Below, in pieces: positions 4,772 through 33,313 of a stretch of 64,000 nt of DNA (its first letter is position 1; the number at the start of each line of letters is the position of its first letter). Under the pieces are notes generated by a model. The model saw nothing but the letters and a program-made list of their open reading frames with translations, had not been told where the DNA came from and made no database searches. The translations under genes and the position numbers were made by a program. The stretch is taken from contig CP066698.1 in NCBI GenBank assembly GCA_016432645.1, positions 645,062-709,061 of the forward strand, read 5' to 3'. This DNA comes from Candidatus Falkowbacteria bacterium. GTDB taxonomy: Bacteria; Patescibacteriota; Patescibacteriia; Patescibacteriales; UBA12465.

Positions 4772-6193
4772 TTATTTAATATAAGCTAAAATTTTAGCCT
4801 TTATTTCATCTACTTTTGCCCCAGCTTCGGTTTTTGTTCGGGCTTCCGCATAAATTCTAATTATGGGCTCAGTGTTGGAAGCGCGCAAATGCACCCAGGA
4901 ATCAGACCAATCAATTTTAACGCCATCAATATCCGTAATTTTTTCCTCAGCATAATCAGTTTTTATTTTTTGCAGAATTTCCGAAACATTTATTTCGGGA
5001 GTTAACTCTAACTTATCTTTAACCATAAAATATTCCGGCAGACTTTTGCGAATTTCTGACATTTTTTTATTTGACTGAGCAAGCATTGATAAAAATAAAG
5101 CCACTCCCAACATGGCATCACGCCCATAGTGGAGTGCCGGAAAAATAATGCCGCCATTTCCTTCGCCGCCGATTACCGACTTAACATCTTTCATCTTTTT
5201 TACCACATTAACTTCACCAACCGCCGCCGCTTCATATATTCCGCCGTGCTTTTCAGTAATGTCTCTTAAGGCGCGGGAGGAAGATAAATTAGAAACCGTC
5301 GCTTTTTGATATTGTCCGGAATATAAGTCATTTATAACCGCAAAATTTTCTAAAATATAATCGGCAATCGCCACTAAAGTATACTCTTCACCGAACATTT
5401 CACCGTTTTCATCAATAAAAGCCAAACGGTCAACGTCCGGGTCAACCACGATTCCCAAATCCGCTTTCTCGGATTTTACCCGTTCCATAATTTCCGTTAA
5501 ATTTTCCGCGAGTGGCTCCGGTTTATGAGCAAATAAACCGTTGGGCAAACAATTTAACAGACTTATTTTAGTTATTCCTAAACTTTCTAAAACATGGGGA
5601 ATGGCTTTACCGCCGGCAGAATTAATTCCGTCGACAACAATTTTAAAATCACGTCCAGCCACCGCTTCCCTGTCAATCAGGGGCAAGGCCATAATTTTAT
5701 CAATATGATCCCATTCTAAATACGGCGAGAAAAAATAGGAGCCAATTCTATCTTCAGCCACATAAACCGCCTGATTATTTTCGGCCAACACTAAAATTTG
5801 TTCACCTTCAGCCGCTGACAAAAACTCCCCCCGTTCGTCTATTAGCTTAAGAGCATTCCAGCCGCCGGGATTATGCGAAGCGGTGATAATAATGCCTCCT
5901 TGCGCCTTCTGAGAGACGACAGCGACTTCTACGGTGGGGGTTGAGGAAATACCTAAATCAATAATATCAATCCCCAAGCTTAAAAGATTGCCAACAACTA
6001 AGCGGCTAACCATTTCCCCGGAAACGCGCGCATCGCGCCCCACAATAATTTTCGTTTTTATTGACGGGTTACGCTTAATTATAAAAGCGCCAAAAGCGGA
6101 ACTGAATTTGATGATTTCTACTGGGGTCAGGTTATTTCCCGGTTCGCCGCCAATGGTGCCGCGAATACCGGAAATTGATTTGATGATGGACAT
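4772..6193 (-). CDS. phosphohexomutase (phosphoglucosamine/phosphomannomutase family)
   Basis: SGIRGTIG, active-site TASHNPGGWNALK, metal loop VVDPDVDR, and GGEGNGG. Start trimmed to the ATG at 6193 (MSIIKSISGIRG). Confidence 0.85.
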   Translation of the reverse strand: MSIIKSISGIRGTIGGEPGNNLTPVEIIKFSSAFGAFIIKRNPSIKTKIIVGRDARVSGEMVSRLVVGNLLSLGIDIIDLGISSTPTVEVAVVSQKAQGGIIITASHNPGGWNALKLIDERGEFLSAAEGEQILVLAENNQAVYVAEDRIGSYFFSPYLEWDHIDKIMALPLIDREAVAGRDFKIVVDGINSAGGKAIPHVLESLGITKISLLNCLPNGLFAHKPEPLAENLTEIMERVKSEKADLGIVVDPDVDRLAFIDENGEMFGEEYTLVAIADYILENFAVINDLYSGQYQKATVSNLSSSRALRDITEKHGGIYEAAAVGEVNVVKKMKDVKSVIGGEGNGGIIFPALHYGRDAMLGVALFLSMLAQSNKKMSEIRKSLPEYFMVKDKLELTPEINVSEILQKIKTDYAEEKITDIDGVKIDWSDSWVHLRASNTEPIIRIYAEARTKTEAGAKVDEIKAKILAYIK

Positions 6194-7019: not shown

Positions 7020-8447
7020 TTAGGTATTAATGCTGCCTGTGCCGCTACAATCATTTTGATAATCGTTTTTTACTGATTCAGCACAAACTTCATCTTTTGG
7101 CCATTCGCCTTTAGTAAGCAACGTCCGCGGCGCAATCGAAACTAAGACTGATAAAATACTAAACTGCAGTTCCTGCCAAGTAATATTGTCTCGCTTTGAA
7201 ATGACTACCCTTGTTTCTTGAGCGCTATGAACTTCATATCCTAAATCAACATCGGTAATCTCAATAACTTTAAAAAGGAGTTCATCTTTAACTAAATTGG
7301 AATCAAAATCAAAAGGCAAATAAAATACCAATTGCCCAACAGCATTAATCTGATAGCTAACCAATGCCGGCTGAGAATTTTCCGAGGTTTTTTCAGGATG
7401 GCTGACTTTAACATTGAAGCCCTGTTTATCGTCGTACTTCTCAAAAACTGACGGTAATACCTCAAACGGTCGAAAAAAATCAATTTCTGGACACAGGACC
7501 AGCGTTACCACGCTCTTTTTGGGGTCAAAAACGTAATGGACATGGGCAGAATCAATCCCCCAAAATCCTTCTTTCATTAAATCTTTAATCCGCTCCTGCA
7601 AATGAATATCCCAAAATGTTAAAATGATTTCTCGCTTAGCATTAAACACAATATCCACTTTAACCATTCCTGGTTCCAGGCTAGAATACCCGGGCCACTC
7701 ACCCTCCCAGTCAACTCCGGCCGGGAAATAATCAGCTGCCACTGCTAAAACATCTTTCTTTAACTCCCACCAACTTCGGTCATCATCCTTGATCAACACT
7801 ATTTTGCAATCCTTAATGTTGTCATGCACAATAATATGAGAAATCGATTGGCGCCCGCGTAAACGCTCGCAAAAATCATCAAGATAGTCATAGCCCTGGT
7901 CAAAATTCAAATCCAGAACCCGATTTCCATCTTTTTTAATTTTAAAATGTTGACGAAACAGCCGCAGAGCATATTGACGATGAAGCTGGGCGAATATCTC
8001 TCCAATTAACTTGCTTTTAAAATCAGAGAAACTGGCAGCTGGCGACTTGGTGACGGTAATGTCATGGCTTTCAACCGAAAGTTTAGTTATTTCCAAAAAC
8101 ATTTTCTGAATCTTAATCAGTTGTTCATTGGTAAACACGTGCGGCCAACTAGTAGCCAAGGTTAAAATGTCATGGTTTTTATAGGCCACTTCTCTTACCG
8201 TCAATCGGGAATCAACCGGACTAACGAAACGATGCGCCTCAAGACAGTCTGCATCATAGTCATAAATAGTAACTACTTTTTTCTCGCTGAGTGCAGTCTC
8301 GGGTTGCACTGGTGTTTCTGCTTCCGCTTCTAAACGTGCTTGTCGTCGACAGTACAAATACCAAGCGACGGCAATTAATACTACGGCTCCTAAAAAAGCC
8401 AGACGCCAACCAATTGGCAATTCCGAATAAAAATTTTCTCCCTTCAT
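7020..8447 (-). CDS. hypothetical single-pass membrane protein, 475 aa
   Basis: N-terminal TM (WRLAFLGAVVLIAVAWYLY). Recurrent W-x-EL..GEWP-type segments suggest internal repeats. No known domain recognised. Confidence 0.55.
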   Translation of the reverse strand: MKGENFYSELPIGWRLAFLGAVVLIAVAWYLYCRRQARLEAEAETPVQPETALSEKKVVTIYDYDADCLEAHRFVSPVDSRLTVREVAYKNHDILTLATSWPHVFTNEQLIKIQKMFLEITKLSVESHDITVTKSPAASFSDFKSKLIGEIFAQLHRQYALRLFRQHFKIKKDGNRVLDLNFDQGYDYLDDFCERLRGRQSISHIIVHDNIKDCKIVLIKDDDRSWWELKKDVLAVAADYFPAGVDWEGEWPGYSSLEPGMVKVDIVFNAKREIILTFWDIHLQERIKDLMKEGFWGIDSAHVHYVFDPKKSVVTLVLCPEIDFFRPFEVLPSVFEKYDDKQGFNVKVSHPEKTSENSQPALVSYQINAVGQLVFYLPFDFDSNLVKDELLFKVIEITDVDLGYEVHSAQETRVVISKRDNITWQELQFSILSVLVSIAPRTLLTKGEWPKDEVCAESVKNDYQNDCSGTGSINT

Positions 8448-8604
8448 GATATTAAGTTTTAGAAGGAACTAAAGTTAAGTGAACGCCACCTAACAAACGG
8501 TTTTGTGGCCCGAAGCCCTTCAAGACGTTATCTCGCCTCATAGTTCTCTTCACTGAGAACCTATCTTTTTATCATAGTAGCTATTAAAAATCAAGTAAAA
8601 TTAA

Positions 8605-8627
8605 CAAAAAAGAGCCCCTATGGCTCT
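8605..8627 (-). terminator. terminator downstream of 5S rRNA
   Basis: On the minus strand: agagcc-ataggg-ggctct followed by tttttt. Confidence 0.7.
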
Positions 8628-8671
8628 TGTTTTACACTCAAATAAATTTCCCCCAATTAAAAAACACCATT

Positions 8672-8789
8672 GTTCTGGCGGCGACCTACTTTCCCAGGGC
8701 TCAGGCCCAAGTATCATCGGCGCTGTCTGGCTTAACTTCTGAGTTCGAGAAGGGATCAGGTGTGACCCAGACGCTTTAACCACCAAAAC
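8672..8789 (-). rRNA. rrf: 5S rRNA
   Basis: The reverse complement reads gttttggtggt..cacctgatcccttctcgaactcagaagttaagc..gccgatgatacttggg..gggaaagtaggtcgccgccagaac. Helix I pairs the two ends, and a flanking caccattgtt/aacaatggtg stem extends it. Confidence 0.93.
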
Positions 8790-8887
8790 AATGGTGTCTT
8801 TTATATATTAAGCGCTATCGCGCTAAAAACCATTGGTATTATTATATATGTTACAGAGTAAAAATTCAAAACTTTAAAAATAAAAGT

Positions 8888-11897
<3,010 letters not shown>

Positions 11898-31189: not shown

Positions 31190-31295
31190 CGTGTTAGTTG
31201 CTGACTTGGATTAGAAAATGACAGAATTTATCTCCCCGAGGTCAAAATAGCGTCACAATTTTTATGTGGTGGTACAGGGGTAAATATTTAAACAA

Positions 31296-31883
31296 TTAAT
31301 ATAAAAAATTATATTGCTTTGTTTCTAAAGATTCACATTTTTGTTTTGCAGAACTAGTTAGTAAATAAGATGAGCATAATTCAGGTGTTTTATCTCGATA
31401 TTCAACCATATAATTATTAATATCCACTTCGGCTATGTCCGCATCAATTAATATTGATTTAATAGCCGTATTTTCAGATGTGTATCTAGGATCATTTGTT
31501 ATACAACTCTGATAAGCACCCAAGCCCGTTAATAGTCTTTCATTTTTATTAAACGCTGCTTCATTTTCATAAGGATAAAATAATGGTGAAAATGTAGTAT
31601 TTGCTCTATCAAAGTAAAATACGACACTATTTTGGACATTTTTTATACAGTCATTTTGTATTTCTCCAGCTAATTCAGACATTCTTATACTTTCTTCTTG
31701 TTGTTTTTTTTGTTTGTCTAATTCCGCTTTATCTTGAGCTATTCTTATATCCTCTGCTTGTCTTTCTTTTTCCAGATTTAATTTTTCGCGATTATAGCTT
31801 GGTAAAGAATATAAAAAATAGTAAGCAATTGATAGTGCCACTATTGTGGCCACTACACTAAAAATATTTTTGTGCTTTTCCAT
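31296..31883 (-). CDS. membrane-anchored coiled-coil protein with Cys-containing C-terminal domain
   Basis: N-terminal TM (FSVVATIVALSIAYYFLY), then a charged heptad region (EKERQAEDIRIAQDKAELDKQKKQQEE). 195 aa. Confidence 0.55.
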   Translation of the reverse strand: MEKHKNIFSVVATIVALSIAYYFLYSLPSYNREKLNLEKERQAEDIRIAQDKAELDKQKKQQEESIRMSELAGEIQNDCIKNVQNSVVFYFDRANTTFSPLFYPYENEAAFNKNERLLTGLGAYQSCITNDPRYTSENTAIKSILIDADIAEVDINNYMVEYRDKTPELCSSYLLTSSAKQKCESLETKQYNFLY

Positions 31884-31895
31884 ATTATTTTAATA

Positions 31896-32414
31896 TTATT
31901 TAGCAAAATCTGCATTGACTGTCTCAAATTTACTAAAATTAAATTTATATATTCCAAAAGATAAGACCTCTTTTTCTGTATCAATGGTATAAATTTCTAA
32001 TCTATCATGAACACACAAAGGATAATCATTATTATCTAATGTAATTAATAGTAAATCCTTATGTTTTTTTAAAAACGCGGCATTACACAAGTCAACAAAA
32101 CTAATTTGATTGTTATTAATATTTTTATTTGAGTATAAATTAGATAACACGGTAGCATTTTTAATGATCTCATTAGAACACGGTAAAACAGCGGCCACGA
32201 AAGAATTTAAATAATCTTCTTTTATCTTTCTATGAATTTGTTTTTTACATCCTTTTAAAAACTCAAAATTTATCAGATCGTTGATAATTGGTATACAGTG
32301 ATTTCCAGCTAAATATTCAAATAATTCATTAAAATAAGGCGTATTGGAATATTCATACGCCTTAATAATAAAACATGTATCTAATATAATATGATTATTG
32401 CTTACTATCGACAT
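31896..32414 (-). CDS. PIN-domain (VapC-like) putative toxin
   Basis: ILDTCFII (first Asp), a mid Glu, SFVDLCNAAF and LITLDNNDY fit the D-E-D-D PIN pattern. I chose the start at the ATG at 32414; the ORF track starts at 32435. Confidence 0.55.
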   Translation of the reverse strand: MSIVSNNHIILDTCFIIKAYEYSNTPYFNELFEYLAGNHCIPIINDLINFEFLKGCKKQIHRKIKEDYLNSFVAAVLPCSNEIIKNATVLSNLYSNKNINNNQISFVDLCNAAFLKKHKDLLLITLDNNDYPLCVHDRLEIYTIDTEKEVLSFGIYKFNFSKFETVNADFAK

Positions 32415-32547
32415 ATTTTGAAACACAAAAATCATGCTTTTCCTTATCCAATTCTAACTCTTGGGCATAAACTTTTTTAGCAAAAGTTTTTATCTTTTCG
32501 ATGTCCCAAACATAGTCCTTATTAAGTTTTATATCTTCATTATTCAT
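32395..32547 (-). CDS. untracked 50-aa ORF upstream of and overlapping the PIN gene; candidate antitoxin
   Basis: Hand translation: ATG at 32547, MNNEDIKLNKDYVWDIEKIKTFAKKVYAQELELDKEKHDFCVSKYVDSKQ, TAA at 32397-32395. It overlaps the PIN start by 20-41 nt. At under 60 aa it is absent from the ORF track. Confidence 0.4.
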   Translation of the reverse strand: MNNEDIKLNKDYVWDIEKIKTFAKKVYAQELELDKEKHDFCVSKYVDSKQ

Positions 32548-32603
32548 ATCTTTATATAACTATTATACCCTATTTATATTAATAATTATAGCTTTCTAGC
32601 CAT

Positions 32604-32632
32604 TGACAAAATGCTAATTTAGTTGTATAATG
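32604..32632 (+). promoter_or_regulatory. consensus sigma70 promoter for the HNH gene
   Basis: TTGACA, 17 nt, TATAAT, with both hexamers perfect. Confidence 0.65.
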
Positions 32633-32670
32633 CCAAGTTAAATTAAAATATCGTTTTTATTTTAAATTAT

Positions 32671-32955
32671 ATGTATAACAATTATTCAACAACCTACAGG
32701 AGTAAAAGGGGATATGTTTTCTTTAAAGCTACTAAAAAACCAGTCCATAGGTGGATAATGGAAAAAATTATAGGAGATGAATTGAGGCCAGGAACTGTCG
32801 TTCATCATAGAGACGGTAACAAAGCAAACAATAGACCAAGTAATTTGAAGCTCTTCCCTAGTCAAAAAGCTCATTTCATGTACCATTTAAACAATAAGAA
32901 AAAAACTGGTAATTGGTACGGTGCTAATAGACATTCGAGCTCATTTGATTTTTAA
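32671..32955 (+). CDS. small HNH endonuclease (HNH_3-type)
   Basis: GYVF......HRWIMEKIIG..L.PGTVVHHRDGNKANNRPSNLKLF. 94 aa. Confidence 0.8.
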   Translation: MYNNYSTTYRSKRGYVFFKATKKPVHRWIMEKIIGDELRPGTVVHHRDGNKANNRPSNLKLFPSQKAHFMYHLNNKKKTGNWYGANRHSSSFDF

Positions 32956-33022
32956 TATATTCCTATATTCATCATTTTCCGCTCAAAATAACTAAAAAAC
33001 AAACACCTTTTTCGCCACTGTT

Positions 33023-33200
33023 CCCCCAAATCCCCAGCCCTCTCGCTTGCCGCCGCCAGAAGTGCGGCGGCTGCACTCGTCCAGAGTTGGCGCCCGAAGC
33101 CCCCCCCGGAGCTTCGTTCGACGCTCGCTTACTCGCCTCGCCTTCCGTCTCGGCTCTTAGCTCACTTCCAACTAGTTCGATTCCCATTCTTTCCGTTTCC
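33023..33200. other. GC-rich hairpin-dense element of unknown nature (candidate structured RNA or foreign DNA remnant)
   Basis: Hand count gives 96 G+C in 140 nt (33023-33162) in an AT-rich genome. It contains a perfect hairpin gccgccgc-cagaagt-gcggcggc (33049-33071) and cgaagc..gcttcg (33095-33116), and it ends at the terminator at 33206-33233. Confidence 0.35.
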
Positions 33201-33205
33201 ATAAC

Positions 33206-33233
33206 AAAAAAGACTCCTTAGGGAGTCTTTTTT
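33206..33233. terminator. bidirectional terminator closing the tRNA/tmRNA unit and/or the GC-rich element
   Basis: aaaaa-agactcc-ttag-ggagtct-ttttt. Confidence 0.75.
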
Positions 33234-33241
33234 GTTCTGTG

Positions 33242-33313
33242 AGCGGGTAACGGGAATCGAACCCGTCTCTCGACCTTGGCAAGGTCGCATAATAACCACT
33301 ATACGATACCCGC
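33242..33313 (-). tRNA. tRNA-Gly (anticodon GCC)
   Basis: Reverse complement: gcgggta-tc-gtat-agtggtta-ttat-g-cgacc-ttGCCaa-ggtcg..gacgg-gttcgat-tcccg.. with acceptor gcgggta/tacccgc. Confidence 0.88.

Follow-up and report, generated by a model that had tools for sequence, protein, structure and literature searches.

A GC-rich structured segment behind tRNA-Gly(GCC) in a Candidatus Falkowbacteria genome, the probable core of a small non-coding insertion unit

Organization of the locus

The window, i.e. the whole 64-kb stretch of genomic DNA of Candidatus Falkowbacteria bacterium that was analysed, carries on its minus strand, in this order, smpB (34304-33840), the tmRNA gene (33828-33444), tRNA-Leu (33417-33333), tRNA-Gly(GCC), a hairpin and a GC-rich segment. 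A 23S rRNA gene (3006 nt on a 2925-position model, with some extra sequence) followed by a 5S rRNA gene is also found on the minus strand (8673-11894). A 16S gene was detected nowhere in the window, and the rRNA operon thus appears to be split. The features of the element and of its surroundings are summarized in Table 1.

The GC-rich segment comprises 96 G+C in the 140 nt of 33023-33162 (68.6%; 39.6% in the whole window), the same value as counted in the initial annotation. It is the 140-nt stretch richest in GC in the entire 64 kb, and only one other stretch, within the 23S rRNA gene, reaches at least 62% GC. Two hairpins, GCCGCCGC-CAGAAGT-GCGGCGGC (33049-33071) and CGAAGC...GCTTCG (33095-33116), were found where they had been placed before; they represent helices P4 and P3, respectively, of the conserved fold described below, and both are kept by compensatory changes in the homologues. 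The direct repeats of 'ctcgc' read CGAG/GCGAG on the minus strand, where they build nearly invariant tandem G.A/A.G pairs.

The initial annotation let the segment end about 5 nt before a bidirectional terminator. The terminator-type hairpin was confirmed at 33206-33233 (by folding, a 15-bp A-tract/T-tract stem; it is not among the sites listed by a simple terminator scan), and the gap was corrected to 18 nt, since the conserved unit on the functional (minus) strand extends from 33187 to 33041 and is separated from the hairpin by an AT-richer spacer. The folding of 33015-33240 is considerably more stable than that of shuffled sequences, with z = -3.8 on the plus strand and z = -3.0 on the minus strand, and with the T-arm of the tRNA added, z = -6.0 (RNA parameters) or z = -7.5 (DNA parameters).

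Table 1. Features at the tRNA-Gly(GCC) locus of the window.
Feature	Position	Strand	Basis
tRNA-Gly(GCC), target gene	33241..33313	-	ARAGORN, Rfam, sequence
T-loop of tRNA-Gly, T54-T60	33261-33255	-	sequence
tRNA nt 58 to 3' end, ATTCCCGTTACCCGCTC	33241..33257	-	by analogy, from occupied and empty sites of relatives
Perfect A-tract/T-tract hairpin of the bidirectional terminator type	33206..33233	.	folds
AT- and purine-rich spacer	33188..33205	-	sequence comparison, promoter scan
Anti-T, AUGGGAAUCGAAC, reverse complement of tRNA-Gly G53-U65 with one G.U	33175..33187	-	15-bp helix with T-arm in folds; pair comparison
GC-rich conserved core	33041..33174	-	covariance model match, covariation
P1	33168-33173 with 33085-33090	-	core helix
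P2, long hairpin with CGAG/CGAG tandem G.A motifs	33123-33165	-	core helix
P3	33095-33116	-	core helix
P4	33045-33076	-	core helix
Variant 3' flank, GGGCUGGGGAUUUGGGGG..., replacing the usual tRNA 3' fragment	32977..33040	-	comparison with L106, L122 and L100
Variable island, from the element to the conserved downstream gene	31200..32976	.	synteny blast, Pfam, ORFs

Beyond the element, an HNH_3 gene (32671-32955, plus strand, 94 aa; Pfam and ORF prediction) converges on it, and a perfect TTGACA-17-TATAAT promoter is located upstream of this gene (32603-32631). On the minus strand, at 32547-31896, a 50-aa ORF overlaps a 179-aa PIN-like ORF in a toxin-antitoxin layout, the PIN match (E = 2e-4) being below the Pfam cut-off; a further ORF of 195 aa (31883-31296, minus strand) was assigned to no family.

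Homologues and distribution

SmpB-syntenic loci were taken from 80 species genomes, the nearest being those of Patescibacteria/Falkowbacteria-type MAGs, and were searched for the element by blastn. With blastn and a covariance model, homologues were found in five of the 80 species genomes (loci L004, L005, L018, L036 and L037). The copies in L004 and L005 are located directly after tRNA-Gly plus hairpin, L036 contains two copies after tmRNA, and L037 contains two after tmRNA, one after tRNA-Gly and one truncated copy. A degenerate pattern derived from the species copies yielded 49 more loci in metagenome contigs; as this family-derived pattern fixes part of the anti-T and of the core, the diversity in the metagenome set is under-sampled.

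The covariance model, R1, was built on 54 distinct copies, and its E-values are rough. It gave a single match in the window (33019-33190, minus strand, 133 bits, E = 3e-39), nine full-length matches plus the truncated copy in the species loci, and 68 matches in the metagenome loci; a weak match in L060 is probably due to chance. Approximately 80 homologues were found in Patescibacteria genomes and metagenomes. Its distribution is sporadic, since the closest relative (L003; SmpB 91% identical) is without the element and only 5/80 species have copies. The family is present in some and absent in other close relatives, and occurs only beside tRNA or tmRNA genes on the same strand.

The GC island had been interpreted initially as a structured nucleic acid outside the known RNA classes, and an Rfam scan and a homologue search in relatives had been proposed. 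Both were run, and the interpretation is borne out by the missing Rfam match together with strong covariation in the 54 homologues: the blastn search recovered copies, and the scan of 33019-33200 gave no family match at the gathering score (Rfam 15) and, at E<=10, only chance-level matches to the hairpin and the terminator. Two pattern scans of IMG/VR viral contigs revealed no copies of the element, and blastn against phage records and plasmids gave nothing beyond terminator-like matches, so that these searches pointed to no vehicle.

Conserved fold and strand

Covariation was tested on a MAFFT alignment of the 54 distinct homologues, which was not fitted to structure. In the four-helix model, P1 closes a junction that holds P2 and P3, and P4 follows. 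Standard pairs occupy 85.2% of the cells, compared with 31-38% when the partners are slid by 1-3 columns; 32 of the 36 pairs are changed on both sides, and the covariation score reaches 0.524, while the slid controls do not exceed 0.12. The observed pairing and covariation values were equalled by none of 500 shuffles. Tandem G.A/A.G pairs are found in 50-53 of the 54 copies at two sites and in about 40 at a third, with covarying Watson-Crick pairs on either side. It is the tRNA (minus) strand that folds, because G-U pairs exceed A-C pairs in the helices by 66 to 25. Such covariation on a single strand would fit a conventional RNA gene equally well.

The 76-aa ORF that had been noticed on the minus strand is spurious: stop codons occur in all three forward frames in 31/54 copies, the segment lengths are spread over all residues modulo 3, Pfam searches with the six-frame ORFs of the element gave no match, and an exact-protein look-up of the 76-aa product gave no record. 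A group I or group II intron, a permuted or split tRNA, and a tRNA on the opposite strand were considered as well and were rejected; the sequence offers neither a catalytic core nor an acceptor 5' strand, and on the plus strand no T-arm could be folded.

Relation to the adjacent tRNA

The tie between the element and tRNA-Gly had been missed by the initial annotation; the 5' end of the element is an inverted copy of the T-arm, and the element shows the behaviour of an insertion. In every copy with available upstream DNA (36 distinct tRNA/element pairs), a tRNA or tmRNA gene on the same strand was found approximately 50-60 nt upstream, or else a tRNA 3' fragment that is part of an array. In the conserved 5' motif GGGAAUCGAAC (33185-33175), G53-C63 of tRNA-Gly is found as its reverse complement, and in 35/36 pairs the seven T-loop positions are exactly reverse-complemented by the anti-T of the adjacent element. 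Nine of these 35 exact pairs represent the minority T-loops TCCGATT, TCCAATT and TTCAATT, the last one including tmRNA. The contiguous complementarity covers loop and T-stem over 11-18 nt (13-18 nt for Phe, His and Gly variants) and, reaching even into acceptor bases, follows the individual T-stems of tRNA-Phe, tRNA-His, tRNA-Trp and tRNA-Gly variants. This match was not imposed by the search, since the tRNA lay outside the search pattern.

At the other end, 37/54 copies close with ...GCGMGRA, after which the sequence of the adjacent tRNA is repeated directly, beginning at about nt 58 and running to the discriminator or CCA; these 3' copies match the Gly, Glu, Phe, Trp or His tRNA of the same locus, and a second hairpin follows the tRNA 3' fragment. 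As sequence potential, the anti-T of 37 copies could pair with the unit's own tRNA-end copy in a helix, P0, of 5-11 bp. In the window, where the unit is in its integrated state, anti-T and T-arm could form the 15-bp helix with the DNA-parameter z value given above.

Evidence for insertion

Empty and filled sites were compared among relatives. At the empty tRNA-Gly sites of L007 and L008, the tRNA is followed by the terminator GCAGTCCGAAAGGGCTG; at the filled sites of L089, L120 and L124, this terminator is located beyond the tRNA fragment, and the hairpin between tRNA and element is a different, unit-specific one. The terminator-type hairpin thus travels with the unit and varies from unit to unit, in contrast to the ancestral GCAGTCCGAAAGGGCTG of the empty sites. 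Similarly, the flank CCATATAGGGGG... of the empty site in L009 recurs in L086 and L089 beyond their distal fragment. L089 has two copies that are nearly identical; these have the upstream hairpin and the spacer in common and not the downstream flank, and L124 contains two identical units in tandem. From this comparison of empty and filled sites and of duplicated units, the unit is defined as [tRNA nt 58-76 copy + hairpin + spacer + anti-T + core]. The sequences indicate that a unit of approximately 235 bp has been inserted at about position 57/58 of the T-loop, regenerating the tRNA and pushing the original 3' end and its terminator downstream.

Two other derivations were rejected. A unit composed of core, fragment and downstream hairpin, inserted after the terminator, does not agree with duplicates that share the upstream hairpin, nor with ancestral terminators that follow the fragments; and an origin of the fragment from a reverse-transcription stop at m1A58 does not agree with fragments that copy genomic 3' flanks (CTCA...) and not CCA-matured tRNA.

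Six different tRNA-type genes are occupied. Arrays comprise up to four copies (L131), and the units within one array are often divergent; the cores are mosaic, for example with the same P4 at tRNA-Trp (L123) and at tRNA-Gly (L093).

The copy in the window

In the window, tRNA, hairpin (33206-33233), spacer, anti-T (33187-33175, one G.U) and the full core to 33041 are present. By analogy with the relatives, ATTCCCGTTACCCGCTC at 33241..33257 is probably the unit-supplied copy that restored an intact tRNA, and within the window it is indistinguishable from an original. No second tRNA-Gly end TTCCCGTTACCCGCTC was found in the 64 kb, even with 3 mismatches allowed. The copy is intact on its tRNA side, its distal junction being remodelled and the downstream tRNA fragment lost. 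As this diagnostic fragment is absent, the copy is regarded as an insertion by its homology to complete units.

After the core, the window continues with GGGCUGGGGAUUUGGGGG..., of which about 60 nt are common to L106 and L122, and part to L100. In this subgroup of copies (window, L106, L122 and L100), the variant flank GGGMUGGGGAUUUGGGG starts exactly at the usual junction of core and fragment, and its GGGGAU could pair with AUUCCC, as judged from the sequence. The variant flank may represent a second target type, the end of another element, or an extra domain.

In L005, fragment and hairpin are followed at once by a gene orthologous to the one at about 31115-29494 in the window (synteny blast). 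Hence, the window from 32976 to about 31200 represents an extra variable island. L005 is without the HNH/PIN island, and at this place L122 carries a 3.6-kb island of other DNA. The HNH gene is thus a neighbour within the island and not a partner of the element, as the island is variable and L005 has the element without HNH. An association with HNH genes in general was also rejected: the gene in the window is HNH_3, and the sole other HNH gene (L086/L089, PF01844) belongs to a different family and is part of a nested island.

In an independent assembly of run SRR12113407, two Logan contigs break off within the locus, L002 at 33037 and L001 at 33381 of the window. The former break falls within the element, only a few bases from its distal edge, and the latter within tRNA-Leu, and both fit sequence that is repeated or variable in the community. 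The end of contig L001 reads ...GGACTCAA where the window has GGACTTAA, i.e. another tRNA-Leu anticodon variant is present in the sample.

Cargo genes and other islands at the same tRNA

At some loci, cargo genes are located between tRNA and anti-T. Cargo comprises a 408-aa ORF (L085), a 321-aa ORF (L125), a PMT_2 protein (L083), the HNH gene together with a 104-aa ORF in the nested island of L086/L089, and a 23S rRNA-intervening sequence protein (23S_rRNA_IVP, four-helix bundle, PF05635; L096, 1183-1566), the latter between the copy after tmRNA and tRNA-Leu. ORF clustering over about 55 loci revealed no protein or recombinase family linked to the copies, and the minimal units contain no ORF; likewise, no DEDD/IS110 or other recombinase adjoins the element in these loci. 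The largest ORF cluster, with apparent 'serine recombinases' from 24 loci, proved to be artefactual, since its ORFs run through tRNA-Gly in antisense.

The tRNA-Gly(GCC) gene is an integration hotspot in the clade, with islands of L003 and L036 at the same tRNA. In L036, a large serine recombinase gene (7902-9143, minus strand; PF07508 + PF13408) abuts or overlaps tRNA-Gly with its 3' end, and in L003, an ORF at 7057-7488 (minus strand) is presumably the C-terminal part of a tyrosine recombinase, from our own reading of the HxxR...Y motifs. Fragments of tRNA-Gly 3' ends that start from T54/T55 (TTCGATTCCCG...) and have no GC-rich core beside them were observed in L025 (about 7125-7175), L027 (about 5490-5515) and L034 (about 11540, minus strand); in L025, another small GC hairpin, GGGGCTTCCGCCCC, stands before the fragment. 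The three fragments are probably att scars of other element types. Fragments from other islands start at T54/T55, and those of the element described here at 57-59.

Proposed mechanism and alternatives

We consider it probable that the GC-rich segment is the conserved core of a non-coding insertion unit of approximately 235 bp in the T-loop of tRNA-Gly(GCC), which would be moved by an enzyme supplied in trans. How the unit moves is inferred in its entirety. On the tRNA strand, the unit is made up of a copy of tRNA nt 58-76, a terminator-type hairpin of its own, a short spacer, an anti-T of 11-18 nt and a core of about 135 nt. Site-specific recombination would take place at 57/58 of the T-loop, with the enzyme provided from elsewhere. 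The substrate may be a folded single strand, in which the anti-T would pair with the unit's own tRNA-end copy (nt 58-65) and mimic the target duplex, or would present the complement of the target loop for strand exchange; the core could serve as a cis-acting module for recognition, replication or guidance. A folded single strand is proposed because a classical double-stranded attP needs no inverted T-arm copy, and tandem arrays would be explained by the regeneration of the target upon insertion. The junction is without a full T-loop overlap, which is a misfit to the classical tyrosine-integrase crossover within the 7-nt loop. As a specific and tentative version, possible and well short of an even chance, we propose a gene-less mobile element that passes through a folded single strand of DNA or RNA, selects and mimics its T-loop target by the inverted T-arm copy, depends on an enzyme encoded elsewhere, and uses the G.A-rich core for recognition or as a guide.

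An alternative that we regard as unlikely is a resident sRNA gene on the tRNA strand, the 5' end of which would pair, within the precursor or in trans, with the T-arm of the tRNA or tmRNA beside it and control the folding, processing or modification of the tRNA. Such an RNA would be antisense- or guide-like, and the tRNA-end copies and arrays would then be by-products of local duplication. Covariation on one strand with a G-U bias would be in line with such a gene, and terminator-type hairpins bracket each core, with a hairpin after most copies; on the other hand, a strong hairpin with a T-tract stands in front, and no conserved promoter was seen between hairpin and anti-T, either in a promoter scan or in sequence comparison across copies. 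The complementarity of 11-18 nt varies with the local T-loop, and it does so also at positions 54-57, which the 3' fragment does not contain; tandem G.A motifs are typical of RNA modules that bind proteins. In archaea, C/D guide RNAs are able to direct Cm56 of the T-loop. No C/D or H/ACA boxes are found in the element. The sRNA interpretation is further opposed by the sporadic distribution (5/80 related species, absent from the closest relative L003), by the displacement of the original 3' end seen between empty and filled sites, and by the occupation of six different tRNA-type genes with mosaic cores.

Rather improbable, in our judgement, is a core that acts as a guide RNA for RNA-directed recombination, following the concept of the IS110 bridge RNA, with the anti-T picking the T-loop and an enzyme in trans inserting the unit. 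Like the bridge RNA, which has 177 nt (PMC11208160), the element has a non-coding structured segment of comparable size (about 150-170 nt, near 170 nt in the comparison), part of which covaries with the target across the crossover point (T-loop, 35/36), and no protein-coding capacity. However, the bridge RNA has bipartite left-bottom/right-top guides in two internal loops and an adjacent DEDD recombinase (PMC11208160), whereas the element has one contiguous top-strand complement at its 5' end and neither an IS110 (DEDD) nor any other recombinase adjacent at any locus. In addition, the unit holds a 17-19 nt copy of the 3' side of the target, which RNA-guided insertion sequences do not need, and a promoter was not seen.

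A 3' UTR or RNA of the HNH gene on the plus strand, ending at the bidirectional terminator, had been suggested by the initial annotation. The segment does lie between the hairpin and the stop codon of HNH (32955), and the perfect sigma-70-like promoter upstream of the gene would be compatible with such an RNA; it is nevertheless very improbable, as the helices require G-U pairs found on the minus strand only, the orientation relative to the tRNA is constant, the approximately 80 homologues are without an adjacent HNH gene (except in the nested L086/L089 island), and L005 has the element and no HNH. Foreign high-GC scrap or a gene for the 76-aa protein, as could be suspected from the high GC content and the open frame in the window, has hardly any probability in view of the approximately 80 homologues at syntenic, tRNA-linked sites conserved with compensatory changes, and of a frame that is closed in most homologues, has no Pfam match and encodes a product not on record.

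Comparison with known systems

Sublocation classes of integrative elements that target tRNA and tmRNA genes have reportedly been distinguished by Williams in 2002. Tycheposons are tRNA-targeting genomic islands that form arrays (bioRxiv 10.1101/2020.12.28.424599). Like such islands, the element is inserted in the 3' part of a tRNA or tmRNA gene and supplies a replacement 3' end, and a displaced partial tRNA marks the far junction (in 37/54 homologues; in the window, only the intact tRNA side is present). New insertions stack at the tRNA, older ones are pushed outward, and cargo and decayed remnants build up. The empty site of relatives with its original flank beyond the insertion, as expected of a tRNA island, was observed as well (L007, L008 and L009, in comparison with L089, L086, L120 and L124). 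Unlike these islands, the unit is without an integrase and has a minimal size of approximately 235 bp, its identity block begins at nt 57-59 and not at the start of the T-loop, and it has a covarying single-strand fold and an inverted T-arm copy.

IMEX elements such as the CTX phage integrate as folded single-stranded DNA via the host recombinases XerC/D. The element resembles them in being without its own recombinase, in its strand-specific structure, and in that integration regenerates a usable target, which leads to tandem arrays. Its two inverted target-like arms, with the short spacer between them, could mimic the chromosomal site when folded, so that the P0 helix and these arms would, by their sequence potential, provide the foldable target mimic of the IMEX type. 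In contrast to IMEX, the target is a tRNA T-loop and not dif, which makes strict membership unlikely; the minimal unit carries no gene at all, and the element was not found in viral contigs.

Integron attC sites are simple imperfect palindromes of 60-140 nt with R and L boxes, defined by single-strand structure, which form arrays and are recombined by an enzyme encoded elsewhere. Similarly, the element is a candidate site based on single-strand structure, it occurs in arrays, and its enzyme would be encoded elsewhere; in contrast to attC, it has four helices, tandem G.A motifs and tRNA-derived ends, and no IntI is nearby. The mobile GC clusters of yeast mitochondria and the palindromic elements of Rickettsia resemble the element as non-coding repeats, rich in GC and forming hairpins, which spread through AT-rich genomes; these are shorter, and the element differs from them by its tRNA-derived ends, the repair of the target gene and the conserved multi-helix core.

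The element shares one or two features with each of the nearest systems and fails the defining features of all of them, and literature searches for an equivalent element in Patescibacteria retrieved no description. We place it, as probable, among the tRNA-targeting integrative elements, in a form with a structured core that belongs to no known family.

Significance

Patescibacteria have tiny genomes, and their DNA exchange is little understood. Variable islands, among them the HNH/PIN island in the window, have the family at their tRNA-proximal edge, and it may act as a cis-acting 'integration cassette' that seeds such islands. It represents a compact system, with a conserved fold of about 135 nt and a target-complementary segment, in which the gene for the enzyme is absent. 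In practical terms, the family is missing from Rfam, it breaks assemblies (as in the Logan contigs), and its tRNA fragments can confuse tRNA annotation. If the units are recombined in an RNA-guided manner or as single strands, they would be an addition to the short list of nucleic-acid-programmed recombination mechanisms; mobility as a folded strand, if true, would be a new way in which minimal parasites of the minimal genomes of Patescibacteria spread and give rise to genomic islands.
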